Both the position numbers and the translations under genes were made by a program. The notes below the pieces were generated by a model, which saw nothing but the letters and a program-made list of their open reading frames with translations, did no database searches and was not told the DNA's origin. Below are positions 1 to 15,539 of a DNA stretch of 15,539 nucleotides, piece by piece (positions within the stretch are counted from its first letter, which is position 1; each line of letters opens with the position of its first letter). Location: contig CAZGMS010000082.1 of assembly GCA_964526915.1 (NCBI GenBank), forward strand, positions 1-15,539, read 5' to 3'. The DNA is from an uncultured Nitrospirales bacterium. GTDB lineage: Bacteria; UBA10199; JADGCS01.

Positions 1-412
1 CCACCATGTTGCCCTTTGTGGTGCCGGTGAACATGATGGCGTGGTCCTGTTCGACACTGCGGATGATCTTGTTCGTGAGGATCTGGCATTGGGCCCGATC
101 GTATTCGGTAAGCCCTGTTTCGCGTAGCACCGCTTTGCCGGCCTCCATGACTTCGCCCTGATCCGCGTGGTGCACCTGCATCATGCCAAAGTGACGTTCG
201 GTCACAAGGGACCCCAACCTGACCTTTGTTCCTTTGAGTGCCATGTCTGTGAAACGGTGAATTTCCATGGCGGGCGCGATTTCAATAAAGAGCGCCGCGT
301 CATATTCAGACGGGTCGTACACGCGATTGTCTTTGGCAATAAACTGCGCCAGTTGTGGTTGCAGGCTATCGAGAAAGATGAGGGTTCTGAGTTCAAATTT
401 GGGACTGCTCAT
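1..412 (-). CDS. BMC shell protein, N-terminal part (gene continues past the window start); probably a permuted tandem-BMC (EutL/PduB-like BMC-T)
   Basis: Minus-strand ORF starting at ATG 412-410 (MSSPKFELRTLIFLDSL...), preceded by AAGGAG 7 nt upstream. It is absent from the ORF track because it runs off the window. It contains two BMC-type motifs about 50 aa apart (DMALKGTKVRLGSL and MEAGKAVLRETG). It lies inside a BMC operon. Confidence 0.5.
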   Translation of the reverse strand, partial: MSSPKFELRTLIFLDSLQPQLAQFIAKDNRVYDPSEYDAALFIEIAPAMEIHRFTDMALKGTKVRLGSLVTERHFGMMQVHHADQGEVMEAGKAVLRETGLTEYDRAQCQILTNKIIRSVEQDHAIMFTGTTKGNMV

Positions 413-474
413 AATATGCTCCTTGTTTTGTTATAGGCCATATATGACCTATAAAACTGATAAGACCTGTAAAA

Positions 475-1377: not shown

Positions 1378-1380
1378 ATT

Positions 1381-1650
1381 TTACTCCAAATTCACCTTAT
1401 CCACCACGCCGCAAATGACTGAGTGAAAAGGGTCTTCCCGTTTGCCCAGTATTTGTCTGGCGCAGTTACCTTCTTGCTCCACCAAAACCACATCGCCCAC
1501 ACCCGCTTGTACGGAATCAAATGACAAGAAGGATTTCCCCTTGTCGTTTCCGTGTTCATCAACCGGTTGCACAATCAGCATTTTGTGTCCTTGGTAGGCC
1601 GGTTGCTTGATGGTGGCGACCACATTGCCAATGACTCTGCAGAGGATCAT
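1381..1650 (-). CDS. BMC vertex protein BMC-P (EutN/PduN/CcmL family), paralog 1
   Basis: 89 aa, MILCRVIGNVVATIKQP...GVGDVVLV is the canonical EutN/CcmL fold signature. AAGGAG RBS. The start overlaps the stop of the upstream BMC-P (ATGA). Confidence 0.9.
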   Translation of the reverse strand: MILCRVIGNVVATIKQPAYQGHKMLIVQPVDEHGNDKGKSFLSFDSVQAGVGDVVLVEQEGNCARQILGKREDPFHSVICGVVDKVNLE

Positions 1651-1997
1651 TTGGTCTCCTTTGGTCCGTCGGAGCTCAAATGAGCGGAGGCGACCTCTTC
1701 AAAAATATTTTGTTTGTTCGCGATCCCTTTGTCCTCCACAGTCAATTCGTCCACAATCCCTGTGATGGCCGCATCTACCGGCGCGAACGGGTTGGGCAGG
1801 GCCAGTGTGGATTCTTTGGCCAGCGTGTAATAAACAATCTCCTGCGGGCCAGCTTGCACAGTGTCGATGGCGGCAATTGGTCCGCCGTCAGGACGATACT
1901 GTTCATCAAGCGGCTGGATCATCAGTATCTTCAGGTTCTGGATGCCGGGGTCTTTGACAGTGGCAACAACCGTGCCGATGACTTTAGCTAGTTTCAT
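1647..1997 (-). CDS. BMC vertex protein BMC-P (EutN/PduN family), paralog 2, with C-terminal extension
   Basis: MKLAKVIGTVVATVKDP...LKILMIQPLDE is the EutN/PduN signature. 116 aa with an extra C-terminal tail. Confidence 0.85.
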   Translation of the reverse strand: MKLAKVIGTVVATVKDPGIQNLKILMIQPLDEQYRPDGGPIAAIDTVQAGPQEIVYYTLAKESTLALPNPFAPVDAAITGIVDELTVEDKGIANKQNIFEEVASAHLSSDGPKETK

Positions 1998-2099
1998 AAA
2001 AAATAGTCTCTGATTGTTTTAATCTGGGCTTAAGGCTCAAGGCACAAGGTGTAAGGCGTCAAAATCGCCCTATGCCTTACGCCTTTAGCCATGCGCCCT

Positions 2100-2657
2100 T
2101 TACCAATACACTCCCCTTGCCAACATCTCTGGATGCGGTGCCTCGATGATTTCGCACCCAGCCAACATACCCGTGTTTTTGACAAATTCCTTTGCCCGTT
2201 CCATTGAGGCCTGAACATCGCACAATGCGCCCGTGATCATAAAATACCCTTTGCCCCCCAGGCCGTTGGCCAGTCTGACTTCCACGAGTTTGCTGTCGGT
2301 CGCCTTGGCCGCGATATCGGCGGCTTCAACACAGGTTGCGATCGAAAATGTTTCAACAATCCCGAGCGCACCAAAATGATCAATCACATTTGTTCCTGTG
2401 ATGGCAGGGATGAGGTCTGGGTGTGCGTGTGGCAGGAACATGTGGCTTACGATCATGTCATGTCCGATCTCGATCCCTTTTTTTAGGGATTCCTCCACAT
2501 CGGCCACCTCACCGCAAATGAGCACCATGTATTTGCCCGGGCAGATGGCATGGGTTTCGAGAACGCGCACAGGCGCCTTCTTGACCATCTCATCGGTGGT
2601 CTTGAACCCTTTGGCGACAGATTTGAATTCGATCATGGCGAGTGCTGGTTCAATCAT
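2100..2657 (-). CDS. PduT-like tandem-BMC-domain shell protein (BMC-T) with a conserved Fe-S-ligand cysteine
   Basis: 185 aa with two BMC domains. The first carries ICPGKY, matching the PduT Cys38 4Fe-4S ligand motif. The second is canonical (ALGIVETFSIATCVEAADIAAKAT...GKGYFMITG). The size matches PduT (184 aa). Confidence 0.85.
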   Translation of the reverse strand: MIEPALAMIEFKSVAKGFKTTDEMVKKAPVRVLETHAICPGKYMVLICGEVADVEESLKKGIEIGHDMIVSHMFLPHAHPDLIPAITGTNVIDHFGALGIVETFSIATCVEAADIAAKATDSKLVEVRLANGLGGKGYFMITGALCDVQASMERAKEFVKNTGMLAGCEIIEAPHPEMLARGVYW

Positions 2658-2672
2658 AAAGTGTAAAGGCTC

Positions 2673-4016
2673 CTAGCGCTGAGCCTGAATTTCAATGGTC
2701 GTTTCCGAAACGGATTTCACCACACCAGAAATCGAGGCGTGGTAGTTGGTCCCCAAGGCCCCTGCTGGGCAGGGCGCAATCAAATCTCCCAAGCTGACAG
2801 TCTGACCCTGTTTGACAACAGGCAGGGATTTGGCTCCCACATGCCGGTGCAAGGGGACAATCACATCAAAAACATTTTGATAACCCAGATAAGGGGTTTC
2901 TTTTTTGTATTTCAGTAAATCCAGTTTTTTAAGAAGCACATCAATCGCCACCTTGCGGTCTTCATAGGCACTGTTGCAGGTGGTGGGCTTGCTGTTGTGC
3001 GGGTTTTTCACGCCTTTGGCAACGAGTTCCCTGCGGTAAGCGGCATAGATTTTTTTGGGGGAGAGACGCATGACATCGCACGCGACCATCTCGCACATCC
3101 CGCACTGACTGCACAAAAAGGCCGATGTGATGTTTTGCGTGGGTTCAGATAAATTGTAATCGATGGTGCGCATGGTGGCATGCGGGAAAATCGCGTGCCC
3201 CAACAGGTTGCGAGGGCAGAGGTCGGTACAGCGGAAACACTGACAACATGCCGCCTTGGAGAGTTTGATCATTTGCCCTACGCTGAGGGTCTTGGCGCGC
3301 ACTACAAAATGATCGCGTGGCAACACAAGCACACCACTGCAGGTTTTGGCGATGCCGAGAGAAAGGTCATCAACGATATTGCCCATCATGGGACCGCCAT
3401 CAATCACGACAGGGTTATCGGTAGTGATTCTGCCTGCCAGGGCGAGGAGTGTTGTGTAGGGGGTGCCGATGGGGACCTTGACGACGCAGGGTTTTTCGAC
3501 TTCACCGGTAATGGTTACCATTCTCTCGGTGACAGGCTTGCCATTGACGGCGTCGGTCATTTGGTAGAGAGAAAGGACGTTGCTCACGACCACGCCCACG
3601 TTGAGTGGCAGGCCACCTTCGGGGATGATCCGTTTTGTCGCATCATAAACAGTCAAGAACTCATCACCTGCGGGATAATAATTTTGAAGTTTGTGAATAT
3701 GAATATTTTGTTTGGGATCGAGTGCCTTGGTGAGCGCGTTCACCACATCGGTATAGTGCCCTTTGACAGCGATGATTCCCTGTTTGGCGCCGGTGGTCTT
3801 CATGGCCAGGGCAACACCTGTAACCACCTGATCCGCGTGTCTGATCATGAGGGTCTTGTCGGTGTTGAGCAGGGGCTCACATTCGGAACCATTGGCGAGC
3901 ACGGTGTCCACGCTGGCTTTGAGTTTGATGTGCGGGGGGAACCCGCCGCCACCGGCACCCACGATGCCTGCATTAAAGACGGAGTTGATGATATCGTTTG
4001 CTGTCAAATGGTTCAT
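2673..4016 (-). CDS. PduS-like RnfC-family Fe-S flavoprotein (BMC-associated oxidoreductase)
   Basis: Collinear with PduS throughout: GIVGAGGGGFPPHIKL, YPAGDEFLT, GGPMMG, two Cys clusters (CCQCFRCTDLCPRNLLGH and CSQCGMCEMVAC), and a C-terminal GALGTNYHASISGVV. The likely start at 4016 overlaps the AldDH stop by 1 nt (TGATG); the ORF track extends it to 4049. Confidence 0.9.
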   Translation of the reverse strand: MNHLTANDIINSVFNAGIVGAGGGGFPPHIKLKASVDTVLANGSECEPLLNTDKTLMIRHADQVVTGVALAMKTTGAKQGIIAVKGHYTDVVNALTKALDPKQNIHIHKLQNYYPAGDEFLTVYDATKRIIPEGGLPLNVGVVVSNVLSLYQMTDAVNGKPVTERMVTITGEVEKPCVVKVPIGTPYTTLLALAGRITTDNPVVIDGGPMMGNIVDDLSLGIAKTCSGVLVLPRDHFVVRAKTLSVGQMIKLSKAACCQCFRCTDLCPRNLLGHAIFPHATMRTIDYNLSEPTQNITSAFLCSQCGMCEMVACDVMRLSPKKIYAAYRRELVAKGVKNPHNSKPTTCNSAYEDRKVAIDVLLKKLDLLKYKKETPYLGYQNVFDVIVPLHRHVGAKSLPVVKQGQTVSLGDLIAPCPAGALGTNYHASISGVVKSVSETTIEIQAQR

Positions 4017-5470
4017 CAAATAATCCTGAAATACCCCGAGACCACGCACCGCCTGATTTTGGTAAAGTGGCGAGCGGTGGTCACGCCCTCACCTGTGGGT
4101 GAGGCGATCGTAAAGGACGCGGGCCCTTCGCCGTCCATGCCCAATCCGGACAGAGCCATCCCGTTTTTCACAAAAATGGAGGTGCCCATCTTCACGGCCA
4201 TGTTGTGCAGGTTTTCGATATTCTTGGAATGCATGGCCGAGGTGTGGAAGCGTCCCCCCTCGAGCTCGTACGCGCAGTCGATGGCTTGATTCACATTGCC
4301 CACGCGGATGAAAGGCACCACGGGCAGGAGCATTTCGATTTGCGCGAACGGGTGTTTGTGATCGGTTTCGGTGATGGCAAGCCTGATGGCGGGGTCCACA
4401 TCAATCCCAATTTGTTTCAAGATGTGCTGAACGTCTTTGCCCACGAAATCCTTGTTGGGGTGGTCACCGTCCACAATCACTTTTTCGAGTCGTTTGGCGT
4501 GATATGGTGTGAGTTCAAACGCGCCGCTTTTCAGCAGGGCTTTTTTAAACGGATCGGCGGCTTTTTCTGTCACAATGATTTCTTTTTCGATGGCGCAAAT
4601 GATGTTGTTGTCGCAACTCGATGAGGTGATGATGTCGCGGGCGGCTTTGTCGAGATCGGCCGTTTCGTCCACCACAACAGGCGGGTTGCCGGGACCTGCC
4701 GCGACCACACGTTTGCCTGTGCCCATGGCGGCCTTGACCACAGCGGGTCCGCCGGTCACCACCAGAAGTTTAATGTCCTTGTGATTCATGAGCTGGTTGG
4801 CCGAGGCAATGGTGGGGGTCGCGATGGTGGTGAATAAATTGGGGGGGCCGCCTTCACTGATGACGGCCTGGTTCATGAGGTCAATCACAAAGACCGAGAT
4901 TTTTTTGGCTGTGGGGTGCGGGTTGAAAACCACCGTGTTGCCTGCGGCGATCATGCCGATCCCGTTGCAGATGATGGTTTCTGTGGGGTTGGTGCAGGGA
5001 GTGATGGACCCGATCACACCCCAAGGGGCCTTTTCCAAAAGGGTAAACCCGTGATCACCTGTGAAGGTTTGTGGCTCGATGTCTTCAACGCCCGGTGTTT
5101 TGTTGATGGCCAACAGATTTTTTTTGATCTTGTCTTCGACTCTGCCCAGACCGGTTTCTTCACGGGCCATCTTTGAGAGCAGTTCCACATTGGCTTTGCA
5201 GAGGTCCCTGATTTTTTGGATGATGCGTTTGCGTTGTTCGAGTGAGATTTGTTTGAAATCGTCCAGAGCCTTGACGCTGGCCGCGATGGCGTCGTCGATC
5301 GAACCAAAACAGCCACGGGAACCAGTGAACGCGGCGTCTTTTTTGGGTTCCTGTTTGGAGACGGTCGCTGTTGTGTTCGCAGGACGTCCAGCAGGCGGCG
5401 TGTCTTTGACCTGAATTTGAGACACCACCTTATCGACAATGGAACTGATTTGTTCGTCGGAGAATTTCAT
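4016..5470 (-). CDS. CoA-acylating aldehyde dehydrogenase (PduP/EutE family) with N-terminal encapsulation peptide
   Basis: 484 aa. The N-terminus MKFSDEQISSIVDKVVSQI is an encapsulation-peptide helix followed by a linker. ALDH fold with catalytic Cys region SSSCDNNIICAIEKE and the PduP-like GPGNPP motif. Confidence 0.9.
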   Translation of the reverse strand: MKFSDEQISSIVDKVVSQIQVKDTPPAGRPANTTATVSKQEPKKDAAFTGSRGCFGSIDDAIAASVKALDDFKQISLEQRKRIIQKIRDLCKANVELLSKMAREETGLGRVEDKIKKNLLAINKTPGVEDIEPQTFTGDHGFTLLEKAPWGVIGSITPCTNPTETIICNGIGMIAAGNTVVFNPHPTAKKISVFVIDLMNQAVISEGGPPNLFTTIATPTIASANQLMNHKDIKLLVVTGGPAVVKAAMGTGKRVVAAGPGNPPVVVDETADLDKAARDIITSSSCDNNIICAIEKEIIVTEKAADPFKKALLKSGAFELTPYHAKRLEKVIVDGDHPNKDFVGKDVQHILKQIGIDVDPAIRLAITETDHKHPFAQIEMLLPVVPFIRVGNVNQAIDCAYELEGGRFHTSAMHSKNIENLHNMAVKMGTSIFVKNGMALSGLGMDGEGPASFTIASPTGEGVTTARHFTKIRRCVVSGYFRII

Positions 5471-5477
5471 AGGTCAG

Positions 5478-5682
5478 CGTGAATCGTGAATCGTGGATTG
5501 TGGATCGTAAAATGGTTTGTCATCCCAGCGGAAGCTGGGATCCAGAACTGTTGACAGTAGGGATTTCTGCTTTGGTTCGACTTTGCTCACCACCCTGAGC
5601 GCCTGTCGAAGGGTCGCAGGAATGACATACCTACTCAACAATTCGCATTTCGATCCACGATCGACGACCCACAACCCACGAT
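5478..5682. repeat. MITE-like element copy A: heptad-repeat terminal inverted repeats flanking hairpin 1 plus an expanded hairpin 2
   Basis: Left end (CGTGAAT)2-CGTGGAT-TGTGGAT-CGT, then AAAATGG + GTCATCCCAGCGGAAGCTGGGATCCAGAACTGTTGACAG ... CGCAGGAATGAC...CAACAATTCGCATTTCGA. Right end TCCACGA-TCGACGA-CCCACAA-CCCACGA. It fills the whole gap between the BMC-P stop (5684) and the AldDH start (5470). Confidence 0.75.
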
Positions 5683-5683
5683 A

Positions 5684-5977
5684 TTACGGATTCTTCACAT
5701 ACCTTTTGTCGCCATCGATTTCCAAAATATCGACAATGGCCATGATGACGGCATCGACCGGTTTGTTTTCGGTTGCTTGTGTCATTCTGGCCGAGGAGCC
5801 GCTGGCGACCAAGACAACTTCGCCAACACCCGCACCGACAGAATCCGCGGCCACCACAAAACTGCCAGTGGGTTTGCCATCGGTGTCGACATATTTGACC
5901 AGTTGCAACCTGAGGCCCTCAAGTTTTTCGTCCTTGCGGGTGGCCACAACGGTTCCTACAATTTTGCCTAGTTGCAT
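5684..5977 (-). CDS. BMC vertex protein BMC-P (EutN/PduN family), paralog 3
   Basis: True start [27 protein letters not shown] at 5977. The track ORF is artificially extended into the repeat. Canonical EutN/CcmL signature. Confidence 0.85.
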
Positions 5978-5984
5978 AAAACAG

Positions 5985-6187
5985 CGTGGTTCGTGGATCG
6001 TGGGTCGTGGATCGTGGATCGAAAAATGGCTTGTCATCCCAGCGAAAGCTGGGATCCAGAACTGTTGACAATAGTCATTCCTGCTTTCGCAGGAATGACT
6101 ATCCGCTCAACAATTCGCATTTTGACCCACTATTCACGACCCACTATCCACGATTCACGACTCACGATCCACGATCCACGACCCACG
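5985..6187. repeat. MITE-like element copy B (most complete copy): 5 heptads, hairpin 1, hairpin 2, 9 heptads
   Basis: CGTGGTT-CGTGGAT-CGTGGGT-CGTGGAT-CGTGGAT, then AAAAATGGCTTGTCATCCCAGCGAAAGCTGGGATCCAGAACTGTTGACAATAGTCATTCCTGCTTTCGCAGGAATGACTATCCGCTCAACAATTCGCATTTTGA, then nine copies of NYCACGA. It sits between the BMC-H stop (6193) and the BMC-P start (5977). Confidence 0.8.
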
Positions 6188-6192
6188 AAAAA

Positions 6193-6489
6193 TTACTTTG
6201 CCACTTTTTTGACATTGCGACCCAAAGGCAAAGCCACATCGATATTCTCGTGTGGTCTGGGGATGACGTGAACGGAAACGAGTTCGCCAACCTTTTCGGC
6301 TGTTCTGGCGCCGGCTTCGGTCGCGGCTTTCACGGCGGCCACATCACCTCTGACAATCGCGGTCACAAAACCACCACCAATTTTTTCGTAACCAACAAGT
6401 TCAACCTTGGCGGCTTTCACCATGGCGTCACTGGCCTCGACCATTGCGACAAAACCTTTGGTTTCGATCATTCCTAATGCGTCTGCCAT
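6193..6489 (-). CDS. BMC hexamer shell protein BMC-H (PduA/EutM/CcmK family)
   Basis: True start [60 protein letters not shown] at 6489 with AAGGAG RBS. The track ORF is over-extended upstream. First gene of the operon. Confidence 0.95.
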
Positions 6490-6600
6490 ATCAATCTCCT
6501 TTATTAACGATTTAGAGGCCCCCTTATTACTATTACAATAGGGAACCAAGTTTGGTCGGCATAGACTTTTTTTTTGGGGACTGTCAATAGTTAATGATAT
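6490..6600 (-). promoter_or_regulatory. Candidate sigma70-type promoter and structured leader of the BMC operon
   Basis: On the minus strand: TTGACA (plus 6583-6588), an 18-nt spacer, TATGCC (plus 6558-6563), and a ~60-nt leader containing a CCCT...AGGG inverted repeat with a TATTAC direct repeat just before the RBS. It lies in an AT-rich, >400-bp non-coding region. Confidence 0.3.
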
Positions 6601-6717
6601 TATCGTTAAAGAAAACCACATTCAAAATCATTTTATAATAACACGAGATATTTAGTGATATATGATGCTATTTAATGGTTGATGATTAGTGCCAATTGTG
6701 ATAATCAGTTTCTAGAT

Positions 6718-6912
6718 TGCGGATTGTGGCTCGTCATTGAGAGGGTGAACTGCGTTGGAATTGCCAAAAGGCAATTTTAATACTGTGCCCCAAGGGATAC
6801 CGGGGTAATCCAGAAATGATACTGTGGATTGCTTCGATTCGCTTTGTGAATCTCGCAATGACCAGCTGTTTGTACTTTTAGACGATTCACGAACATCGAT
6901 CCACGATCCACT
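6718..6912. repeat. Degenerate copy (E) of the heptad-TIR element
   Basis: Left end GCGGATTGTGGCTCGT matches copy A CGTGGATTGTGGATCGT at about 14 of 17 positions. The internal CCCCAAGGGATACCGGGGTAATCCAGAAATGA is homologous to hairpin 1 + ATCCAGAACTGTTGA. Right end CGATTCACGAACATCGATCCACGATCCAC. Confidence 0.4.
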
Positions 6913-6918
6913 CTTCTC

Positions 6919-7104
6919 ATGCAATATTCCGAAGTCATGACAACCAACGAGGCCATGAAGTACCTCAAAATCACCCGCAAGACCCTGCTCAAATTGGTCA
7001 AAACGGGTGAGCTCAAGGGCGCCAAGGTGGGCAAGGATTATCGCTACCTCAAAAGCGAGATCGACAAGTTTCTCAAAGGGGAAAAAGAGGAACGGCTGTT
7101 TTGA
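6919..7104 (+). CDS. Excisionase-family helix-turn-helix DNA-binding protein (alternative start at 6937)
   Basis: MTTNEAMKYLKITRKTLLKLVKTGELKGAKVGKDYRYLKSEIDKFL is the excisionase/MerR-type HTH pattern. It begins right after a heptad TIR, and its stop TGA lies in a GAATCGT heptad remnant. No clear RBS. Confidence 0.6.
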   Translation: MQYSEVMTTNEAMKYLKITRKTLLKLVKTGELKGAKVGKDYRYLKSEIDKFLKGEKEERLF

Positions 7105-7113
7105 ATCGTATCT

Positions 7114-7179
7114 TGTCATCCCTGCGAAGGCAGGGATCCAGTTTCTGTCATCCCTGCGTGGTCCCTGCCTTCGCAGGGA
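7114..7179. repeat. Hairpin 1 (GTCATCCCTGCGAAGGCAGGGATCCAG) followed by a second fused hairpin (GTCATCCCTGCG-TGGT-CCCTGCCTTCGCAGGG)
   Basis: Same hairpin 1 as the MITE core but with compensatory changes in the stem (CAGC/GCTG becomes CTGC/GCAG). It sits immediately upstream of the GIY-YIG gene. Confidence 0.6.
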
Positions 7180-7199
7180 GGGAACCAGAGCATAGATTT

Positions 7200-7487
7200 A
7201 TGAAGACATACTATGTGTATATTCTTGCCAGCAAAAAAAATGGCACATTGTATGTCGGTGTTACGAGCAATTTGTCCAAAAGAATATTTGAGCACAAACA
7301 AGACCTGGTGGATGGGTTCACAAAAAAATATGGGGTTCATTCTTTGGTTTATATTGAACAAACAAATGATGTGAACGACGCATTGCTTAGAGAAAGAAGA
7401 TTGAAGGCTTGGAAGAGGCAATGGAAAATAGATCTGATTGAAAAATCGAACCCGAATTGGAACGATTTGTATGAAGATTTGTTTTAG
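7200..7487 (+). CDS. Small GIY-YIG nuclease family protein (~95 aa, COG2827-like)
   Basis: True start MKTYYVYILASKKNGTLYVGVTSNLSKRIFEHKQ (GIY...YVG motif with downstream R and E). The track ORF is over-extended upstream through the hairpins. Confidence 0.85.
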   Translation: MKTYYVYILASKKNGTLYVGVTSNLSKRIFEHKQDLVDGFTKKYGVHSLVYIEQTNDVNDALLRERRLKAWKRQWKIDLIEKSNPNWNDLYEDLF

Positions 7488-7494
7488 GAAACAT

Positions 7495-7520
7495 GGATTC
7501 CTGCTTTCGCAGGAATGACA
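7495..7520. repeat. Hairpin 2 (GGATTCCTGCTTTCGCAGGAATGACA), the MITE core second hairpin, immediately downstream of the GIY-YIG gene
   Basis: Near-identical to GTCATTCCTGCTTTCGCAGGAATGAC in copy B. The following GCTATAAATTCGG resembles the MITE GCTCAACAATTCGCA. Confidence 0.6.
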
Positions 7521-7537
7521 AAGCTTTGAGCTTTGAG

Positions 7538-7768
7538 CTATAAATTCGGACACGTCCCGCCACTACAACAACTCCCTGCCTCTGAACACGATTTGGCAGA
7601 GGGACAGGTGGCGTTTGATTTCGAGATCATCCTGCTTGGCACACTGATGAGTTTTTCCAAATCAAGGGACTCGCATTTTGGACAGGCGATGGTATTCTGA
7701 CGCGTCGTGGAGACAATCAATTCAAAAACAGCGTCACATTTTTTGCATTTGTATTCGAATAAGGGCAT
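7538..7768 (-). CDS. FmdB-family zinc-ribbon protein
   Basis: True start MPLFEYKCKKCDAVFELIV...IACPKCES (CxxC...CPxC FmdB pattern) with a Cys/Gly/Ser-rich tail. The track ORF is extended through the upstream tandem repeat. Confidence 0.75.
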   Translation of the reverse strand: MPLFEYKCKKCDAVFELIVSTTRQNTIACPKCESLDLEKLISVPSRMISKSNATCPSAKSCSEAGSCCSGGTCPNL

Positions 7769-7779
7769 GCGTCCCAATA

Positions 7780-7813
7780 CAATTGGCAATGGGCAATTGG
7801 CAATGGGCAATTG
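7780..7813. repeat. Tandem 14-mer CAATTGGCAATGGG x2.4, i.e. three palindromic CAATTG hexamers at 14-bp spacing
   Basis: Seen directly. It lies between the stop of the 889-aa gene (7837) and the start of the FmdB gene (7768). Confidence 0.7.
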
Positions 7814-7836
7814 TATGGAGCAACATCAGGGCGTTG

Positions 7837-10506
7837 TTATGCGGCTGTTCTGGGGAGCCTGTTCTCGTCCATGATTCTTTGATGGGCCAGTCTTTGCAGG
7901 TATGTTCGGATGATGGGATATTTCTCCATCATGTCCTTCAGATCGGCCTCGCTAAAACGAAGGACGGTGACATGGCCTTGCGCACTGACATTTGCCTTGC
8001 GTGCCTGATGGTTGATGGAGGCCATTTCGCCGACTACCGTTCCGGGACCAACTGTGATTCTACGGTCATGGGGCGCATATGACCAGATCTCCGCTAGGCC
8101 ATCCACAATCAGAAAGGCGTCTTTGTTGGTGTGATCGCCCTCGGCGATAAATCGATTGCCCGCGAACATGGTTTCTTCGCTGGCAATCATGAGCAAGGCG
8201 GTGAGGATGGCGTCCGAAATATCAGGCAGGGCCTGTTTGAGCAGGCGATAGTATTTTTTTCGGAGTTCTCTAACGTGTCGCAGCGTCTCAGTGTGCTGAC
8301 CAAGTACCTCGGTCAGCGTTTTGGCAGAAAAAGTCAAAACCTGTGAGGGCATGGAGGCCACAGCACTGGCGTTACGAGGTTCACCAAAGAGTGCTCCCTC
8401 ACCGATGATCCCAAAGGGCACATGGGTGAGTTCCGAACCGTCAGCGTAAAGTCTGAATCCGCCCGAGACAATCATTCTGACAGAGGTGTCTGTTGCGTCG
8501 CTTCCTGCTGTTGCCTCATCTTGAAGCATCAACACCGCTCCTATGTCAAACGTGGCGAGTGTGGTGGCCGCGGCCAAAGCCTGCTTTTGCTCGGTGGACA
8601 GGCCCGCCAAAAGGGGTGACCATTCAATGAAGCGCAAATTTCTCTCTTGTATGCTGTCTTCTGTTTCGGGCTGTTTGGGAAAATGATTGGCCAGCGAAAT
8701 AAATCCCTGATGACCCGCCAATAGTTTGGGGACACCCACCTGGGCCGCTCTGCCGTCACTCACGTGATAGAATTTGACCCGATTCAACACCTCATGCAGT
8801 TCGACTCCTTTTTTTTCTGCAAAAGTCTTGAGCCACGCCAGGGTGACTTCGGGATCGGTATGCAGACCCTTCATGCCAGCCTCAATCAAAATCATGGGAG
8901 GGTTGGGCTGATCCCAGGTGCTTTCCAAAAGATGTTGGTAACGCAGAATTTCGGCCTTGCGTGCCGGGTGCATATCAGGAAACAGCCGATCCAGTTCGGC
9001 AGAATCAGCCAAAGTATCTCCACTGATGTAGAGCGCGAGTTGGCCCCCTGTGTCCGCAGGCGCTGTCCAGACTTCAATGGCCTCGGCGGCCACAGAATGA
9101 CAGGTGTAGTGGGTTCTGAGCCACATGCCCCGGACCGCAACGAACTGTCGAGGTTTGAGTTCCACAAAATTCAATTGAGTCAAACCCTCGGGTTTGCCAT
9201 TAACGGCGATGCTTAGGGTGTATGCATCCTGACAAATATTGTACAAGGTTTTTGTTCCGTACCAATTGAGTTTTGGGCACAGGAACATGAGTTCTATACT
9301 GGCAGGAGTGAAATGATCGGTGTGATCATGTGTGATGGCGATGCCCTCCACCGCGTTCAAGGGAATCCCGTTTTGTATGAGATAAGCAACCGTCTGTGCC
9401 GGGGGGTCGATCAGCGTAACCTTGCCATCCTTCCAAAGCATGAACCCGCTGGTGCCCTCGCCCGAAAAATAATCCGCTGTGCTGATGGGCCAAAGACCTG
9501 CTTCGCCGTCTATCAAGACCCGTTTGCGGATTTCCTGAAACTTGGGATCGAACATGGTTCTGGGATCAACATCGAGATTTTCCACGGGCGGGGCGAATTC
9601 CGGTTTGCCCAGATCGATAGTGCGTAGCAAATGCCCGCGATCATAAATTTCGTACGCCATGGGTCCTTTTTCCTGAGCCTGTTTGACGACAACGCTACCA
9701 TCCCCGATCGTGATTTCGTCGTTCTCAAAATGGGTGACTCTGGAAAAGTCCTCGGATGCCTTGTTGGCGAAACGCTGTGTTTCAGTGCCCAAATCGGGAA
9801 TGCCCTCTTCATTGGAAGCATGTTCGTCTCGTACACTGTCGGTCAGTTTTTGTGGGTTGCGTCCCTGAAAGGCCTCTTTCAAAAAGGCACTGACTTTCCC
9901 TGCGTCACCCGGGGTTGGCAAATAAAAATTAAACCCAGCTTGTTGCAAGAGCGGCCAAAAGTAGGGATAACGGGTAAAGTCTACCGCGTGATAACCCGTT
10001 GTAAATGTCGTGTAACCTTTGACAGGCACATAGTGCAGGGGCATGTAATGACCGAGTTTATCAGAGGGTGTTTTGCCGGGTTGTCCGCCGTTTTTAAAGA
10101 ACATCTGAATGGCATCGAGGTGCGATCCCATGGGGAGCCCCAACTGTACCCAACCTTGAGACGTGTAAACGGCAACGCCACCGCGCCTCATTTTTTGCAC
10201 ATAACCGTATGGTTTGCCAATGGGGCCTGTGTTATCGGAACCGCCTGTTCCACCCGGGCGATCAGTGGATTGTGGGGCGTCCGAGCTTGGTGTTGCAGGT
10301 GCGGCAAGCCTTTGCGCTGCAGGTTTTCTTGTTTGCCTTCCCGTCAAATGTGCAGTTTGGGCCGTTGCACCAGCAAAGGCGGCATAACGACTCGCCAAGC
10401 TTTGTGTTGCCTTACCGCGAGTTGGATTGCCTGTGGAAAGGATGAAAACGTTTGGTGCGACGGGTTGTGCGAGTGGGGCTCTTAAGGCGGTGGTTGCTGT
10501 GTTCAT
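7837..10506 (-). CDS. Large multidomain protein: disordered Ala/Thr/Pro-rich N-terminus, an unknown domain, a metallo-beta-lactamase-fold hydrolase domain, and two C-terminal cyclic-nucleotide-binding (CAP-like) domains
   Basis: 889-aa ORF with GGAGG RBS 5 nt upstream of ATG 10506. MBL motifs ITHDHTDHF (HxHxDH), later THYTCHS, YISGDT and FYHVSDG. The cNMP-binding signatures FGIIGEGALFGEPRNASAVA and VGPGTVVGEMASINHQARKANVSA are each followed by coiled-coil-like helices. Confidence 0.8.
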   Translation of the reverse strand: MNTATTALRAPLAQPVAPNVFILSTGNPTRGKATQSLASRYAAFAGATAQTAHLTGRQTRKPAAQRLAAPATPSSDAPQSTDRPGGTGGSDNTGPIGKPYGYVQKMRRGGVAVYTSQGWVQLGLPMGSHLDAIQMFFKNGGQPGKTPSDKLGHYMPLHYVPVKGYTTFTTGYHAVDFTRYPYFWPLLQQAGFNFYLPTPGDAGKVSAFLKEAFQGRNPQKLTDSVRDEHASNEEGIPDLGTETQRFANKASEDFSRVTHFENDEITIGDGSVVVKQAQEKGPMAYEIYDRGHLLRTIDLGKPEFAPPVENLDVDPRTMFDPKFQEIRKRVLIDGEAGLWPISTADYFSGEGTSGFMLWKDGKVTLIDPPAQTVAYLIQNGIPLNAVEGIAITHDHTDHFTPASIELMFLCPKLNWYGTKTLYNICQDAYTLSIAVNGKPEGLTQLNFVELKPRQFVAVRGMWLRTHYTCHSVAAEAIEVWTAPADTGGQLALYISGDTLADSAELDRLFPDMHPARKAEILRYQHLLESTWDQPNPPMILIEAGMKGLHTDPEVTLAWLKTFAEKKGVELHEVLNRVKFYHVSDGRAAQVGVPKLLAGHQGFISLANHFPKQPETEDSIQERNLRFIEWSPLLAGLSTEQKQALAAATTLATFDIGAVLMLQDEATAGSDATDTSVRMIVSGGFRLYADGSELTHVPFGIIGEGALFGEPRNASAVASMPSQVLTFSAKTLTEVLGQHTETLRHVRELRKKYYRLLKQALPDISDAILTALLMIASEETMFAGNRFIAEGDHTNKDAFLIVDGLAEIWSYAPHDRRITVGPGTVVGEMASINHQARKANVSAQGHVTVLRFSEADLKDMMEKYPIIRTYLQRLAHQRIMDENRLPRTAA

Positions 10507-10790
10507 GCTGTCCTCCCCATTTTATGTGATGATACCAGCCGCATAGTGCTTTTGGTGTCTGGTGTCAAAATTTTCTTGTAGACAGGGGGCATGCGTCAGG
10601 AAATGGTGTCATGTCATCACGAGTAGGTCGCCGCAGGCGGACGACGTGGTGATCTCCATATTGTTTCTTGTGGATCGCCACGCTTCGCCATGAGCCTGTA
10701 AATGGCTCATGGCTCCGCTCGCGATGACGGTGACTTATCACTAATTCATTTTCATTGAACAAGGCCAGGTTTTCTGTTTTATGGCTGGGC

Positions 10791-12086
10791 ATGGATGTCC
10801 TTTTTTTGTCCCGCCTGCAATTTGCCGTGGCCACCCTGTTTCATTTTATCTTTGTCCCACTGACTTTGGGCCTCTCGATCATTGTGGCGATTTTCGAAAC
10901 ACGCTATGCCAGAACTGGTGACGAGCTTTATCTCAAGCTCACCAAATTCTGGGGCAAACTTTTTCTCATCAATTTTGCCTTGGGGGTGGTGACGGGAATC
11001 ACACTGGAGTTTCAGTTTGGGACCAACTGGTCCCGTTATTCGGCCTTTGTGGGCGATATCTTTGGATCACTGTTGGCCATCGAGGCCACGGTCGCGTTTT
11101 TTTTGGAATCCACACTCGTGGGGGTGTGGATTTTTGGCTGGCAAAAACTCTCGCCCAAAAAGCACGCGCTCATCATGTGGCTCATTGCTGTGGCGGGCAC
11201 GCTCTCGGCGGTGTGGATCATTCTGGCCAATGGGTGGATGCAGAATCCAGTGGGTTACGTGATCAAAAATGGACGGGCAGAGCTGGCAAGTTTTAGTGCC
11301 GTGTTTTTTAACAAGTACGCGTGGCTGGAGTTTTTTCACACCATGAGTGCGTCGTATTTATACAGCGCCTTTTTTGTGATGGGAGTGAGCGCGTATCATC
11401 TCATTAAAAAACAACATGTCGATTTTTTCACACGTTCTTTCAAATTGGCCCTCTGGTTTGGTCTGGTGTGTTCGGTTTTGGTGGCCTTTAGCGGTGACCT
11501 GAACGGCGTGAACGTGGCCAAAGTCCAACCTGCCAAACTCGCCGCCATGGAATCACACTGGCAAACGAGCGCCAACGCGCCCATGAAGCTTCTGGTTTGG
11601 CCCGATGAAGAGGCCGGTAAAAATGCATTTGAAGCCTTTTCGGTGCCGTCGGGATTGAGTTTGCTGGCGTTTCACGATCCTCATGCCACAGTGAAAGGGT
11701 TGCGCGATTTTGCCCAGGAGGATCGTCCACCTGTGCTCATCACCTTTGTGGCGTTCAGGGTCATGGTGGCCATTGGGGGCTTGCTGATTCTGCTTTGCGT
11801 GATCGGGGTTTTCAAACGCAACCGCCTGACCGGGTCCAAATGGTATTTGAGGGCCATGTTGTTTACCTTGCCTCTGCCTCTTGTGGCGATTGAACTCGGC
11901 TGGGTGGTGACTGAGGTGGGGCGGCAACCCTGGATTGTGTATGGGCTGATGCGCACGAGCGATGCGGTCTCGCCGGTCGTGACCTCGCAGGTGTTGACCT
12001 CGCTCATTTTCTTTTTTCTGGTTTATGGACTCTTGGGCGCTGTGGGGGTGTTGTTGATGGCAAGACACGTGAATCGTGGTTCGTGA
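10791..12086 (+). CDS. cydA: Cytochrome bd-type quinol oxidase subunit I (CydA), short Q-loop type
   Basis: MDVLFLSRLQFAVATLFHFIFVPLTLGLS...KFWGKLFLINFALGVVTGITLEFQFGTNWS...GRQPW aligns with E. coli CydA. At ~431 aa it lacks the long Q-loop insertion. The track ORF begins at an upstream in-frame TTG; ATG 10791 matches the family N-terminus. The last 5 codons and the stop lie inside the MITE. Confidence 0.93.
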   Translation: MDVLFLSRLQFAVATLFHFIFVPLTLGLSIIVAIFETRYARTGDELYLKLTKFWGKLFLINFALGVVTGITLEFQFGTNWSRYSAFVGDIFGSLLAIEATVAFFLESTLVGVWIFGWQKLSPKKHALIMWLIAVAGTLSAVWIILANGWMQNPVGYVIKNGRAELASFSAVFFNKYAWLEFFHTMSASYLYSAFFVMGVSAYHLIKKQHVDFFTRSFKLALWFGLVCSVLVAFSGDLNGVNVAKVQPAKLAAMESHWQTSANAPMKLLVWPDEEAGKNAFEAFSVPSGLSLLAFHDPHATVKGLRDFAQEDRPPVLITFVAFRVMVAIGGLLILLCVIGVFKRNRLTGSKWYLRAMLFTLPLPLVAIELGWVVTEVGRQPWIVYGLMRTSDAVSPVVTSQVLTSLIFFFLVYGLLGAVGVLLMARHVNRGS

Positions 12087-12217
12087 ATCGTTGTTCGTGG
12101 GGTGCTCTGTCATTCCAGCCTGTCAGCCATAGGACTGATCCCGCTCTGCGTGCGCTGGGATGACAAAACACATTTCGATTCACGATTCACGATCCACGAT
12201 CCACGATCTGCGAGAAT
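12068..12217. repeat. MITE-like element copy C between cydA and cydB (heptad TIRs plus a variant long hairpin)
   Basis: CGTGAAT-CGTGGTT-CGTGAAT-CGTTGTT-CGTGGGG, then GTCATTCCAGC-(34 nt)-GCTGGGATGAC, then AAAACACATTTCGA + TTCACGA-TTCACGA-TCCACGA-TCCACGA-TCTGCGA. Confidence 0.7.
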
Positions 12218-12219
12218 TT

Positions 12220-13248
12220 ATGTTTTTACAATCAATCTGGTTTTTTATTTGGGGGCTTTTATGGGCCATCTTTTTTGCGACCGATGGTTTTGATTTTGGC
12301 GTGGGCACGCTCTACCCTTTTTTGGGCAAGACAGAGCATGACAAGCGCGTGATGATCAATGCCATTGGGCCTTTGTGGGATGGCAATGAGGTGTGGCTCA
12401 TCACCGCAGGTGGGGTGACGTTTGCAGCCTTTCCTCAGGTTTACGCCGTGATGTTCTCAACGCTGTACACCCCTCTCATGATCATCTTGTTTGCGCTCAT
12501 CCTGCGCGGTGTGGCGTTTGAGTTCAGGGGCAAAGTGGATTGTCCCCGGTGGCTCAAAATTTGGGACGCAGCAATTTTTATTGGGAGTGTTTTGCCCGCT
12601 TTGTTATTTGGTGTGGCGTTTGGCAATATTTTTATGGGCATTCCGTTTGATGCTCAGGGCCTGAATCATGGCGGGTTACTCGATCTGATCAACCCGTATG
12701 GTTTACTCACGGGCTTGTTGTTTTTGCTGTTGTTCATCCAGCATGGGGCCTTGTGGCTGGCGGTGCGGTCAGGCTCTGCCCTGCATGACCGGGTCGTCAC
12801 TGTTGTGCGCACCAACTGGTTTGTTTTGCTGATAGTGGCGGTTTTGTTTTTTGTGGCCACGTATTTTGTTACGGATTTGTACGACAATTATATTGCACAG
12901 CCAGTTTTGTGGGTTATTCCTGGCCTGGTAGTTCTTTCGTTATTTGGTGTGCGTTTATTTTTGCGGCAAAAAAAATATTTATGGGCGTGGGTCGCTTCGG
13001 CGGTCACAATTGTGGGGGCCACATTTTTTGGCATCACGGGGCTTTTTCCCCGACTTTTTCCATCAAGCATAGACTCTCAATTTGATCTGACGGCGTTCAA
13101 TGCCTCGTCATCGCAGGACACACTTACCATTATGCTGGTGGTGGTGGCTGTCTTTATCCCCATAGTGATTGCATACCAAGTCTGGGCGTACCGGCTTTTT
13201 TCGCATAAAATTGACCACGACAATTTTGAGCGGGTTGTGGTGTATTGA
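12220..13248 (+). CDS. cydB: Cytochrome bd-type quinol oxidase subunit II (CydB)
   Basis: True start MFLQSIWFFIWGLLWAIFFATDGFDFGVG (DGFDxGVG CydB signature). Polytopic membrane protein. The track ORF is over-extended upstream through the repeat. Confidence 0.9.
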   Translation: MFLQSIWFFIWGLLWAIFFATDGFDFGVGTLYPFLGKTEHDKRVMINAIGPLWDGNEVWLITAGGVTFAAFPQVYAVMFSTLYTPLMIILFALILRGVAFEFRGKVDCPRWLKIWDAAIFIGSVLPALLFGVAFGNIFMGIPFDAQGLNHGGLLDLINPYGLLTGLLFLLLFIQHGALWLAVRSGSALHDRVVTVVRTNWFVLLIVAVLFFVATYFVTDLYDNYIAQPVLWVIPGLVVLSLFGVRLFLRQKKYLWAWVASAVTIVGATFFGITGLFPRLFPSSIDSQFDLTAFNASSSQDTLTIMLVVVAVFIPIVIAYQVWAYRLFSHKIDHDNFERVVVY

Positions 13249-13287
13249 AAAGGCGTAAGGCGCAGGCCTCAAGGTGCAAGGTTCATT

Positions 13288-14622
13288 TCAAATCAGCTTG
13301 TCCCAACAACCAATTGCGTAGAGAGGAATGTGGTAGAGGGTGTAACCGTTGCGTTGCACAATCGAATAGGGGGCCAATGAAACGATCACAGCCTTGGCAT
13401 TATTGAAACGGCTATGATAAATGTCCAGAGCCTTGTATTGGTGTGTGTTGGGCTTGAGGGCCGCTTTGCATTCTAGTGGAATGATTTCGAAGGGCGTTTT
13501 GACCACAAAATCGATTTCAAAATTTTTATCCTTAAACCCGCAAACGTTGGGATGGTCGTCTAGCAGTTCGCTACACAGCATTTGTTCAATCAATCCGCCC
13601 AAAGGCTCTCGCAAGTTGGCATCCAGCGTTTCCAATGCCGAAATTCTCGGCAAGCCGGTTTCTCGCAGATGTTTTGCCAGCCCCACATCAAACAAAAATC
13701 GTTTGGGATAAAAGCTGTGTGTGCTTTCTGGATGGTGTGTTTTTTGTTCAATCTTGTGAATGAGCCTCCAGCCTTCAAGGACAGATAAAATGTTATCGGC
13801 AAGGCGGTTGTTATTTTTGATCAGGGCTGTTTTTTTATAAGAGCCACCCAGTGTGTTGGCCACACTGTTGATGGCGCGGTAGAACAAATTGGCATATTCT
13901 TCAGAAAAGAATTTCAAAAAATCTTCTTTGATGGATTCGAGGTAAGCAGAAAAATCTTGTGTGAGATTGCTGTTGCCGGCTGTGGTCAGATAATTGGTGC
14001 AGATTTGCGGTAGGCCGCCGCAAAGAAGATATTGATCGAGCAAGATGAGGAGTGTGGTGTGGTCGTTGGCAGAAAGCCCGATGAGGTTATTTGGATTGTT
14101 TATGATTTCTTGTAATCCATATTTGGTGTGAGGATTTTTTATCTGTTCGTTTGCACGTATAAACTCTGCGTAGGAAAAGGGGTGCACGGTCATTTGAGTG
14201 TAGCGACCAACAGGAATGCGAATTTCCGGATTTCTGAAAAGGCGGTTCATCATGGATCCACTGAGAATGACTGTTTGATGTGGCCAGTCTTCCTTCATTT
14301 GCCGCACGTAGCGCCCCAATAGATATGATTCGTTGGCTTCATCTATGAAAAGAACGGTGTCTTGCGAAGCGACAAAGTTGGTTTCTCTTTTGAGGACCTG
14401 TTCAAATTCATTAAATGATGCCGTCTTGTCGATTTGAGCGCAAAGAATTTTGTTGGTCTCGAGGTTGATTTCTATGTATGTTTTTTTTGATCGTTCCAAT
14501 GCCAAACGAACAGCCGTTGTCTTGCCTACTTGTCGTACACCATTGATGATAAGAACATTTTTATTTAATTCATCCAATGATATATAATTATTGATGTTAT
14601 TTGACAGGTCTCTGAAAATCAT
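13288..14622 (-). CDS. AAA+ superfamily ATPase with C-terminal DUF4143-like domain (COG1373 family)
   Basis: Walker A GVRQVGKTT near the N-terminus, Walker B-like VLFIDEAN, and a C-terminal FEIDFVVKTPFEIIPLECKA nuclease-like (PD-ExK-type) segment. The gene is markedly AT-rich compared with its neighbours. Confidence 0.8.
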   Translation of the reverse strand: MIFRDLSNNINNYISLDELNKNVLIINGVRQVGKTTAVRLALERSKKTYIEINLETNKILCAQIDKTASFNEFEQVLKRETNFVASQDTVLFIDEANESYLLGRYVRQMKEDWPHQTVILSGSMMNRLFRNPEIRIPVGRYTQMTVHPFSYAEFIRANEQIKNPHTKYGLQEIINNPNNLIGLSANDHTTLLILLDQYLLCGGLPQICTNYLTTAGNSNLTQDFSAYLESIKEDFLKFFSEEYANLFYRAINSVANTLGGSYKKTALIKNNNRLADNILSVLEGWRLIHKIEQKTHHPESTHSFYPKRFLFDVGLAKHLRETGLPRISALETLDANLREPLGGLIEQMLCSELLDDHPNVCGFKDKNFEIDFVVKTPFEIIPLECKAALKPNTHQYKALDIYHSRFNNAKAVIVSLAPYSIVQRNGYTLYHIPLYAIGCWDKLI

Positions 14623-14629
14623 GGTTTAT

Positions 14630-14830
14630 GATACGTAATTATGACCATAATTGCAACAAAAATGTTCTAAGAATGACCATATTTAGAACACGAAGGTAAT
14701 TTTCTGATAATGCTGGGCAATGTGTTTCAGGGCGTCCAATAATTAGGACATTTGTCTCATAATTATGACACTTGTCTTAGTACTGGGACAGTCTCTGGGA
14801 CAGGTACTGGGACTGGTCCTTCAAAAACAT
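14630..14830. promoter_or_regulatory. Operator-like palindromes and direct repeats upstream of the ATPase gene
   Basis: Perfect IR AATTATG-AC-CATAATT (about 14635-14650). IR GTTCTAA-N12-TTAGAAC. Two direct repeats ATAATTAKGACAYTTGTCT each containing GACA-NN-TGTC. Three copies of TACTGGGAC. Confidence 0.3.
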
Positions 14831-15085
14831 CCTAACCCATTATAATCACACAAAATATTATTTTATGGTATTGGCACAGGGATTGCAGTCCGTAAGACGA
14901 GTACGTGCCCATTTTGTTACAGTACTGGCGTGTTTACGAGGGGAATAAAACAGGCATGAAAACTGGCGGGGCAACTCACAAAAAGAGCGTGGCTTGTGGC
15001 TTAGCGGTTATTGCACCGCGTCAACAAATATTATGCGAATGAACAAGCAGTCTTGTTTTCTATGATTTATGCGACTAGGGAGAAG

Positions 15086-15141
15086 CGTGGATCGTGAATC
15101 GTGAATCGCGGATCGTGAATCGTGGATCGTGGATCGTGGGG
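15086..15141. repeat. Heptad-repeat inverted repeat, left arm (8 x CGTGGAT/CGTGAAT) flanking the four-helix-bundle gene
   Basis: CGTGGAT-CGTGAAT-CGTGAAT-CGCGGAT-CGTGAAT-CGTGGAT-CGTGGAT-CGTGGGG, read directly. Confidence 0.75.
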
Positions 15142-15148
15142 AAGTGAG

Positions 15149-15511
15149 ATGAAAATTCAATCGTATAAAGATTTGGAAGTTTGGAAGACAGGGCTCGAGA
15201 TTGTAAAACTTGTTTACAGTGTGACCAAAAAATTCTCAAAGAGTGAGTCGTTTGGCCTGACGTCCCAAACGCAGAGAGCGGCAGTATCAATACCAACAAA
15301 TATTGCCGAAGGATTTGCGCGACGATACACAAAAGAGTTTACTCGATTTTGCTATATCGCGTTGGGTTCATGTTCAGAATTAGAAACTTTGGTGATCATT
15401 GCGAAGGAACAAACACATTTAACGGGAGATGATTTTAAGAAGTTGACAGAATTGTTGGATCACGAAAGTCGAATGTTAATGAGCCTAACCAAAAAACTGG
15501 TTAACCATTGA
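15149..15511 (+). CDS. Four-helix-bundle protein of the 23S rRNA intervening-sequence family (TIGR02436-like)
   Basis: MKIQSYKDLEVWKTGLEIVKLVY...QRAAVSIPTNIAEGFARRYTKEF...ALGSCSELETL matches the conserved pattern of IVS-encoded four-helix-bundle proteins. Confidence 0.8.
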   Translation: MKIQSYKDLEVWKTGLEIVKLVYSVTKKFSKSESFGLTSQTQRAAVSIPTNIAEGFARRYTKEFTRFCYIALGSCSELETLVIIAKEQTHLTGDDFKKLTELLDHESRMLMSLTKKLVNH

Positions 15512-15539
15512 CATCGATCCACGATCCACGATCCACGAT
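15512..15539. repeat. Heptad-repeat inverted repeat, right arm (CATCGAT-CCACGAT x3), truncated by the window end
   Basis: Reverse complement of the left-arm heptads. It begins 1 nt after the stop codon. Confidence 0.7.

Follow-up and report, generated by a model that had tools for sequence, protein, structure and literature searches.

Small palindromic repeats that overlap the 3' ends of genes are already well documented. In the intervening sequences (IVSs) of 23S rRNA of the Coxiella/Leptospira type, terminal inverted repeats pair into a long stem, whose loop is either empty or holds an open reading frame (ORF) for a four-helix-bundle protein, and ORF-less rRNA IVSs are known. In Coxiella, the stem of the IVS carries tandem heptamers (GACAGAT) directly before the S23p start, in a number that varies between strains, and RNase III cuts the terminal stem mid-way (PMC4990558). 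Miniature inverted-repeat transposable elements, or MITEs, such as Neisseria Correia/NEMIS, Coxiella QMITE1/2, ERIC and RPE, measure 100-200 bp, end in terminal inverted repeats, are co-transcribed with their neighbors as long stem-loops and are proposed or shown targets of RNase III. They reach 1-50 bp into the 3' ends of functional genes, as reported for the Coxiella QMITEs (PMC5896051). MITEs also fuse to ORFs, and the NEMIS stems are RNase III targets (PMC2229807). Repetitive extragenic palindromes (REP) and the related BIME and REPIN sequences, often paired into hairpins, are mosaics of small modules without target duplication; within operons they follow stop codons directly, with a presumed effect on mRNA stability. 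Finally, cyanobacterial short tandemly repeated repetitive (STRR) sequences and the TAACTGA repeats of Beggiatoaceae are intergenic arrays of a 7-nt unit with stops in all forward frames and a patchy cross-phylum distribution; they often stand directly upstream of start codons without a ribosome-binding site and overlap upstream stop codons, in 13 Beggiatoaceae genes for TAACTGA (PMC4679880). Here we analyzed a palindromic, heptad-armed element that lies between cydA and cydB, the genes of the two cytochrome bd subunits, in a 15,539-nt stretch of DNA from an uncultured Nitrospirales bacterium (GenBank assembly GCA_964526915.1, contig CAZGMS010000082.1, positions 1 to 15,539; hereafter the window).

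As in a cydAB operon, a PF01654 gene is followed by a PF02322 gene on the same strand. The features of this locus are the following:

10791-12086, plus strand: cydA (cytochrome bd subunit I, 431 aa; PF01654, E 1.6e-176), starting at 10791, native part to about 12067
12068-12102, plus strand: left arm, read directly, five heptads CGTGAAT CGTGGTT CGTGAAT CGTTGTT CGTGGGG
12069-12086, plus strand: heptad-derived codons GTG AAT CGT GGT TCG (VNRGS) and the TGA stop, which pairs with 12187-12189 in the predicted fold
12103-12175, plus strand: core, 73 nt, with a 12-bp inner stem of TGTCATTCCAGC (12108-12119) with GCTGGGATGACA (12154-12165) and a 34-nt loop
12176-12212, plus strand: right arm, inverted, CGATTCA CGATTCA CGATCCA CGATCCA CGATCTG CG, last unit degenerate
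12213-12219, plus strand: 7-nt spacer AGAATTT without a canonical Shine-Dalgarno sequence, with only GAG at 12212-12214
12220-13248, plus strand: cydB (subunit II, 342 aa; PF02322, E 8e-105)

We consider it likely that the stretch 12068-12212, named copy C below, is an ORF-less member of a heptad-armed family, that is, an IVS-like or REP/MITE-like selfish hairpin, and that its left arm overwrote the 3' end of cydA. Members of this family begin with a (CGTGRAT)n arm that faces outward, continue with a core composed of small hairpin modules and end with (ATYCACG)n as the inverted arm, and they are placed in operon spacers. An earlier note on the window, made from its sequence alone, had described a 150-bp copy of a repeated element separating the two genes. 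We confirmed both the separation and the existence of other copies in the window, and the palindrome measures 145 bp, with five heptads, a core with its inner stem, five inverted heptads and no ORF. The arms of copy C (52 nt) are 77% complementary. Within the window, the heptad word CGTGAATCGTG with at most one mismatch was counted 23 times against 0.34 expected, a count reached in 0 of 200 shuffles. The junction and the 431-aa CydA were found to be identical in two independent assemblies (ENA ERZ27254852 and Logan SRR446575), and the window and these two assemblies are 100% identical over 201 nt spanning both element junctions. Therefore, the element between cydA and cydB is not an assembly artefact. 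Rfam searches returned nothing relevant, neither at permissive thresholds on 5400-7600 and 12000-12300 nor at gathering thresholds on the whole window, and a terminator and promoter scan detected no such site in 12060-12220.

The 3' end of cydA reads ATG GCA AGA CAC GTG AAT CGT GGT TCG TGA, with the stop at 12084-12086. Since the heptad array starts at 12068, the last five codons (V-N-R-G-S) and the TGA of cydA are heptad sequence, as the earlier note had read them. That note had also proposed an alignment of CydA with its orthologs, and we compared the tail with those of 119 full-length orthologs, 66-72% identical to the window protein. At the position of the V, we observed A in 116 orthologs and V in 3; at that of the N, K in 83 and R in 25 but never N; at that of the R, K in 96 and never R. 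The G is shared by 118 orthologs, and the position of the S is occupied by P in 118 and never by S. All 119 orthologs extend 1-21 residues beyond the aligned VNRGS and none ends at the same residue or stops as early. The KGP tail was also present in a further 77 ortholog loci. The conserved C-terminal A-[KR]-x-G-P motif is thus lacking in the window CydA, which reads V-N-R-G-S and stops. Because N, R and S are absent from the orthologs at the aligned positions, the tail is both heptad-derived and shortened. Overall, the comparison indicates that the end of cydA is remodelled, modestly, the conserved A-[KR]-K-G-P and 1-21 further residues being replaced by VNRGS and a heptad TGA. A plain insertion would push the native tail, stop, spacer and ribosome-binding site beyond the element; only 7-14 nt are found there, so that this stretch was replaced by the element. 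We also rejected the survival of parts of the native tail of cydA within or behind the element, as there is no KGP-like reading and just 7-14 nt precede the cydB start. The window CydA is about 70% identical to the short CydA of the Desulfobacterales type. A 99%-identical partial protein (P0001) stops 80 residues short of the junction. In the 99%-identical partial CydA of a related metagenome-assembled genome (MAG; L202, a 2772-bp contig of GCA_035290385.1), the last 13 residues differ (GFFRRKRLVDSKW vs GVFKRNRLTGSKW); this divergence, confined to the last ~40 nt before the contig end, could be due to strain variation or to a chimeric contig end.

On the other side of the element, the N-terminus of CydB is native: the PF02322 match begins at residue 3, the protein aligns from residue 1 with the CydB of a syntenic relative (L001), and the start at 12220 is also used by gene callers in L203 and L204. 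The native spacer and Shine-Dalgarno sequence of cydB are gone and its ORF is intact. In a program-made list of ORFs, cydB is spuriously lengthened at its 5' end, to an in-frame ATG at 12160 that belongs to the element (MTKHISIHDSRSTIHDLREF...), since the reverse strand of the heptads is stop-free. The earlier note had placed the cydB ATG 3 nt after the right terminal inverted repeat; it lies instead 14 nt after the last intact unit, which ends ...CCACG at 12205, and 7 nt after the degenerate ATCTGCG (12206-12212). The idea that cydA and cydB are normally adjacent or overlapping proved wrong for this clade, the gap in 77 ortholog loci having a median of 47 nt, with at most 10 nt in 10 of the 77 and at least 133 nt in 8. 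The spacer of the syntenic relative L001 is completely different from that of the window. Several of the long gaps contain unrelated, strongly structured palindromic inserts (z scores of -6 to -7), namely those of L001 (4309-4468), L032 (1347-1644) and L058 (2184-2454), the left inverted repeat of the last beginning on the cydA stop codon. The cydA-cydB spacer seems to be a recurrent landing site.

The window contains a bacterial-microcompartment (BMC) operon on the minus strand, with shell and enzyme genes, and a helix-turn-helix (HTH_17) gene, a GIY-YIG gene, cydA, cydB and a 23S_rRNA_IVP gene on the plus strand; no rRNA was detected in it by Rfam at gathering thresholds. At least four further heptad-armed elements are present, all in gene-to-gene spacers, together with one isolated heptad-like word:

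5478-5680, minus strand: copy A, between EutN (stop 5684-5686) and aldehyde dehydrogenase (ATG 5470, 7 nt from the arm)
5985-6187, minus strand: copy B, between BMC-H (stop 6193-6195) and EutN (ATG 5977, 7 nt from the arm)
about 6716-6912, plus strand: copy E, with degenerate heptad arms and a core unlike the others, its end 6-7 nt short of the HTH ATG (6919)
7102-7108, plus strand: TGAATCG, which holds the HTH_17 stop; the protein of the ortholog ends at the matching position
15086-15539, plus strand: copy D, eight forward heptads, the 23S_rRNA_IVP gene and inverted heptads running off the window

With the elements oriented by their downstream gene, the right half of copy C lines up with A and B without a shift in register, through the module GCTGGGATGACAA, a subterminal CATTT and the heptads, as far as the start codon. 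Copies A and B have cores that are 90% alike, and that of C has only the 14-15-nt module in common with them. The spacers after the arms (5471-5477, 5978-5984, 12213-12219 and 6913-6918) leave the downstream starts in heptad phase, and in A, B and C the start codon is exactly 7 nt past the last heptad, for C if the degenerate unit is counted. No canonical Shine-Dalgarno sequence precedes the genes that follow an arm (aldehyde dehydrogenase, EutN, HTH and cydB); other window genes do have one, among them BMC-H, one of the EutN genes and the gene of the cNMP-binding protein. Upstream of copies A and B, the genes end with a TAA of their own, located 3-5 nt beyond the arms. BMC-H is two residues shorter at its end than the L001 ortholog, to which it is 92% identical, and its TAA is 5 nt from copy B; here an ORF end may have been affected a second time, to a smaller extent. 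The general statement of the earlier note, that insertion of the element reshapes ORF ends, therefore stands for cydA and not as a general effect, since it was seen in one of about five window elements. For the HTH gene, the word TGAATCG does hold the stop, as claimed, but it is a single heptad-like word beside a hairpin module and not an array, and the protein ends ...EERLF exactly as its 88%-identical ortholog does, so that the end of this gene is not reshaped, whatever gave rise to its TGA.

A hairpin module of ~28 nt, GTCATYCCNGC-N4-GCNGGRAT, flanks the small GIY-YIG nuclease gene (7200-7487) in inverted orientation at 7112-7141 and 7497-7519, and it also lies inside copies A and B (5519-5541, 6033-6055 and 6074-6099), for 6 copies against 0 expected. 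Its presence there makes A and B mosaics. The same module was observed in a Nitrospirota MAG (L087, 2915-2937), and we take it to resemble the dRS3-type repeats of Neisseria. By blastn, the cores of the elements showed no similarity to the IVP cassettes described below; those of A and B match the GIY-YIG-flanking hairpin modules instead.

The 23S_rRNA_IVP gene of copy D (15149-15511; PF05635, E 4e-36), for a four-helix-bundle protein, sits in the loop of the hairpin: eight CGTGRAT units end 9 nt before the ATG and the inverted units start right after the TGA. The same layout was found for a 74% IVP paralog from the same sample (L205, 400-850), whose cassette is wedged between the TAA of an upstream ORF and the ATG of a MopE-like gene, and the two whole cassettes have both junctions in common. 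In a Deltaproteobacteria MAG (L208, 1465-1900), the IVP gene is enclosed by inverted CGARGRT arms, and in an Omnitrophica MAG (L212, 360-800) by inverted CCGTGAA (CCGTGRW) arms, between an ORF of a LexA operon and dinB. Two other IVP genes have heptad arrays on their upstream side only (L211, 1435-1500; L213, 248-320). Among 120 IVP homologs, the called N-terminus reaches upstream of the conserved start in 29, and about 20 of these 29 extensions, judged by eye, carry heptad-coded peptides, e.g., VNRES, VDRGS or IVNRGS. Several IVP homologs have a C-terminus reading ...NRGS, as the CydA tail of the window does. The reading of copy C as an IVS-like or REP/MITE-like selfish hairpin follows from this match of its architecture with the IVP cassettes (copy D and others) and with the Coxiella 23S rRNA IVS, which carries a member of the same protein family (PMC4990558). 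A long inverted-repeat stem is present in copy C, heptamers precede the ORF in copy D, L205, L208 and L212 as they do in Coxiella, and a PF05635 ORF occupies the loop of copy D but not that of copy C. In contrast to the rRNA IVSs, which lie in helix 25 or 45 of 23S rRNA, the window elements lie in spacers of protein-coding operons; their heptad is CGTGRAT, the copy between cydA and cydB has no ORF, and RNase III cutting is here only putative. A limited literature search found no description of IVP cassettes in operon spacers.

In a scan of one genome per species, 596 Gb in all, we obtained 118 hit loci, in Acidobacteriota (mostly Pyrinomonadaceae), Gemmataceae, Bacteroidota, Verrucomicrobiota and others. 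The raw count of (CGTGRAT)3 is uninformative, as ~140 chance hits are expected in 596 Gb, and only inverted pairs or longer arrays are meaningful. Inverted (CGTGRAT)n...(ATYCACG)n hairpins were present in 41 of the 118 loci, and array pairs were convergent in 56 cases and divergent in 5, which places the stop-bearing strand outward on both sides. These hairpins sit between co-directional genes. The upstream ORF stops within the first heptads in about half of the cases, among them rpsS and genes for an ABC transporter, a methyltransferase and an LPG synthase. We also noted simple hairpins of the form (CGTGAAT/CGTAAAT)n-loop-(ATTCACG)n that fill co-directional spacers in Pyrinomonadaceae and other phyla, including one after ribosomal protein S19 (L122 3846-3915; L161 2740-2807, 5263-5333 and 6491-6567; L157 7596-7686; L102, L111, L114, L115 and L119), the upstream stop often being the TAA or TGA of the first heptad. 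A tblastn search of the 118 loci with the IVP, GIY-YIG and HTH proteins gave no match, so that most simple heptad hairpins elsewhere are without such cargo.

In a tandem run of three CGTGAAT units, each of the three frames contains a TGA, whereas CGTGGAT and the reverse arm ATYCACG are free of stops in every frame. The stop property, attributed by the earlier note to the element as a whole in several frames, is therefore found only in the outward-facing A-variant arm. In a Nitrospirota MAG, (ATTCACG)4 lies in frame (L087, 6929-6956) within a 597-aa RecJ-like ORF (6194-7987), giving ...ALSTIHDSRFTIHDFMDL..., and the stop-free strand is thus tolerated within a coding sequence. The elements resemble STRR and TAACTGA repeats in their tandem 7-nt intergenic units, which have all-frame stops for CGTGAAT and not for CGTGGAT. 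They differ in that the known arrays are nearly all direct (inverted in 1 of 170), whereas here we observed convergent inverted pairs, hairpins and possible cargo, and the arm beside the start codon is the stop-free strand instead of a direct repeat towards it. No paper containing the heptad strings was found in a limited literature search, and the CGTGRAT-armed repeat family looks undescribed.

We then examined the predicted fold of the elements. Copy C gave -72.5 kcal/mol (z score -5.4), a value equalled in 0 of 200 shuffles, and copies A and B form long hairpins well beyond shuffled controls (z scores -6.3 and -9.9, respectively). In copy C, the predicted outer stem pairs 12060-12091 with 12182-12211, its base lies 8 nt from the cydB AUG, and the cydA stop falls within an 11-bp perfect helix. 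The element probably belongs to the cydAB transcript. A ribosome that arrives at the stop of cydA would then have to melt the whole left arm, which would free the right arm and the cydB start, and the start so exposed would couple translation of cydB to that of cydA. In untranslated RNA, the ~22-30-bp double-stranded stem could be cut by RNase III, as are rRNA IVSs and the Neisseria NEMIS. We infer RNase III processing and a translation-dependent unmasking of the cydB start.

Several points weigh against the proposed history and function of copy C. The near-invariant Gly of the CydA tail is kept: it comes from the G-variant of the second heptad (GGT), where an A-variant would code for Glu, and its retention by chance or selection leaves some doubt on the exact native/element boundary. 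No close relative with an empty site was found in a metagenome scan with CydA, whose matches reached at most 70% identity, and a protein search with the C-terminal 100 aa of CydA gave a best match of 68%; the insertion is accordingly deduced from orthologs that are 60-72% identical. The arms vary from 4.5 to 9 heptads and are decayed at their edges, which also fits slippage in place. At copies A, B, C and D we saw no duplication of a target site, a small sample and hence weak evidence, and no transposase or REP-associated tyrosine transposase (RAYT) gene was found among the window genes, to which the search was confined; mobility is thus unproven. A cut by RNase III 5' of the stop would yield a non-stop cydA mRNA, a concern likewise raised for a Coxiella MITE (PMC5896051). 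Finally, folding of sense and antisense strands revealed no consistent G-U asymmetry and no pointer to selection at the RNA level, so that a neutral, tolerated selfish element remains the default.

Among the other explanations, a cut-and-paste MITE, whose heptad inverted repeats would be recognized by a transposase encoded elsewhere and which inserted into the 3' end of cydA, appears unlikely. The terminal inverted repeats, the size of 145-205 bp, the several copies in 15.5 kb (at least five heptad-armed elements), the core modules common to A, B and C and the documented overlap of gene 3' ends by MITEs all speak for it. However, the flanks (CAG/ATA, CAG/AAA and ACA/ATC) show neither a duplicated target nor, unlike known MITEs, TA ends; the arms are variable heptad arrays of unequal length (5.5 vs 9 heptads in copy B) instead of a fixed inverted repeat, no cognate transposase is known for them and none lies in the window, and a simple insertion would have left the cydA tail, stop and Shine-Dalgarno sequence past the right arm, where there are 7-14 nt. 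The window elements are also like REP, BIME and REPIN sequences in being extragenic palindromes, often paired into hairpins, composed of small modules, located inside operons and devoid of target duplication; REP sequences bear a GTAG or CGTC tag at one end (PMC3733652), whereas the arms of copy C begin with CGTG(A/G)AT in heptad arrays, and no RAYT is present in the window. Growth of STRR/TAACTGA-type heptamer arrays in place by slippage, one of which ran over the end of cydA, would explain the variable copy number, the degenerate edge heptads (ATCTGCG, CGTTGTT), the downstream starts in heptad phase and the recurrence of the same heptad in many phyla, with precedents in TAACTGA (PMC4679880) and in the strain-dependent heptamer number of Coxiella. 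We nevertheless regard it as rather improbable, as slippage alone makes no matched inverted arrays, convergent pairs outnumber divergent ones by 56 to 5, copies A, B and C share subterminal and core sequence other than heptads in register, and the IVP cassettes share both junctions.

A dedicated cis-regulatory RNA of cydAB, e.g., an attenuator or sensor setting the CydA:CydB ratio, would suit a strong structure between two subunits needed 1:1, and unrelated structured inserts do recur in this spacer elsewhere. It is very improbable, given that the same family occurs in unrelated operons (between genes for BMC shell proteins and enzymes, and ahead of the HTH gene), that neither an Rfam match nor a terminator was detected, and that the spacer of the syntenic relative L001 is completely different. 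That ...HVNRGS is the native CydA C-terminus, with a coincidental heptad match and an element beginning after the stop, is scarcely credible: the Gly does align with the near-invariant Gly, Val occurs at its position in 3 of 119 orthologs and distant orthologs read RHVKQGP, but N, R and S never occur in the 119, the Pro of 118 of them is missing, no ortholog ends so early, and 18 nt match the element heptads and pair with the right arm, the five heptads on the left mirroring five on the right. As for an assembly or chimera artefact at a repeat, repeats often mis-join metagenome assemblies and the public contigs of this organism are short; with three assemblies in agreement across both junctions and both ORFs intact, its probability is close to negligible.

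Beyond the likely identity of copy C as a selfish hairpin, a broader proposal can be made, tentatively. The CGTGRAT hairpins and the IVP cassettes would form one widespread, undescribed IVS-like selfish class, residing in operon spacers across phyla (Desulfobacterota-like organisms, Omnitrophota, Acidobacteriota, Planctomycetota and Bacteroidota), including the essential rpsS-rplV. An ORF entering such an element would meet a stop within seven codons, and the strand leading out would be free of stops. The 23S rRNA IVS would then be only the special case that resides in rRNA, and RNase III would cut polycistronic mRNAs at fixed sites, the heptad stems. If the link to the rRNA IVSs is true, it offers a testable origin for the long-puzzling IVSs as well as for four-helix-bundle genes, which are very abundant and of unknown function. 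For gene annotation, ORF ends that are coded by heptads, either as tails (VNRGS, VNRES) or as extensions of the N-terminus (IHDSR..., VDRGS...), are prone to artefacts, the stop-free reverse heptad strand being a likely source of mis-annotated starts, and their recognition improves the calling of starts and ends. For CydA, the near-universal ...KGP tail after the last transmembrane helix is replaceable and can be shortened, in a gene that is intact in several samples. A simple, portable module that combines an all-frame stop, an RNase III stem and a start that upstream translation unmasks could also set the ratios at which the genes of an operon are expressed.

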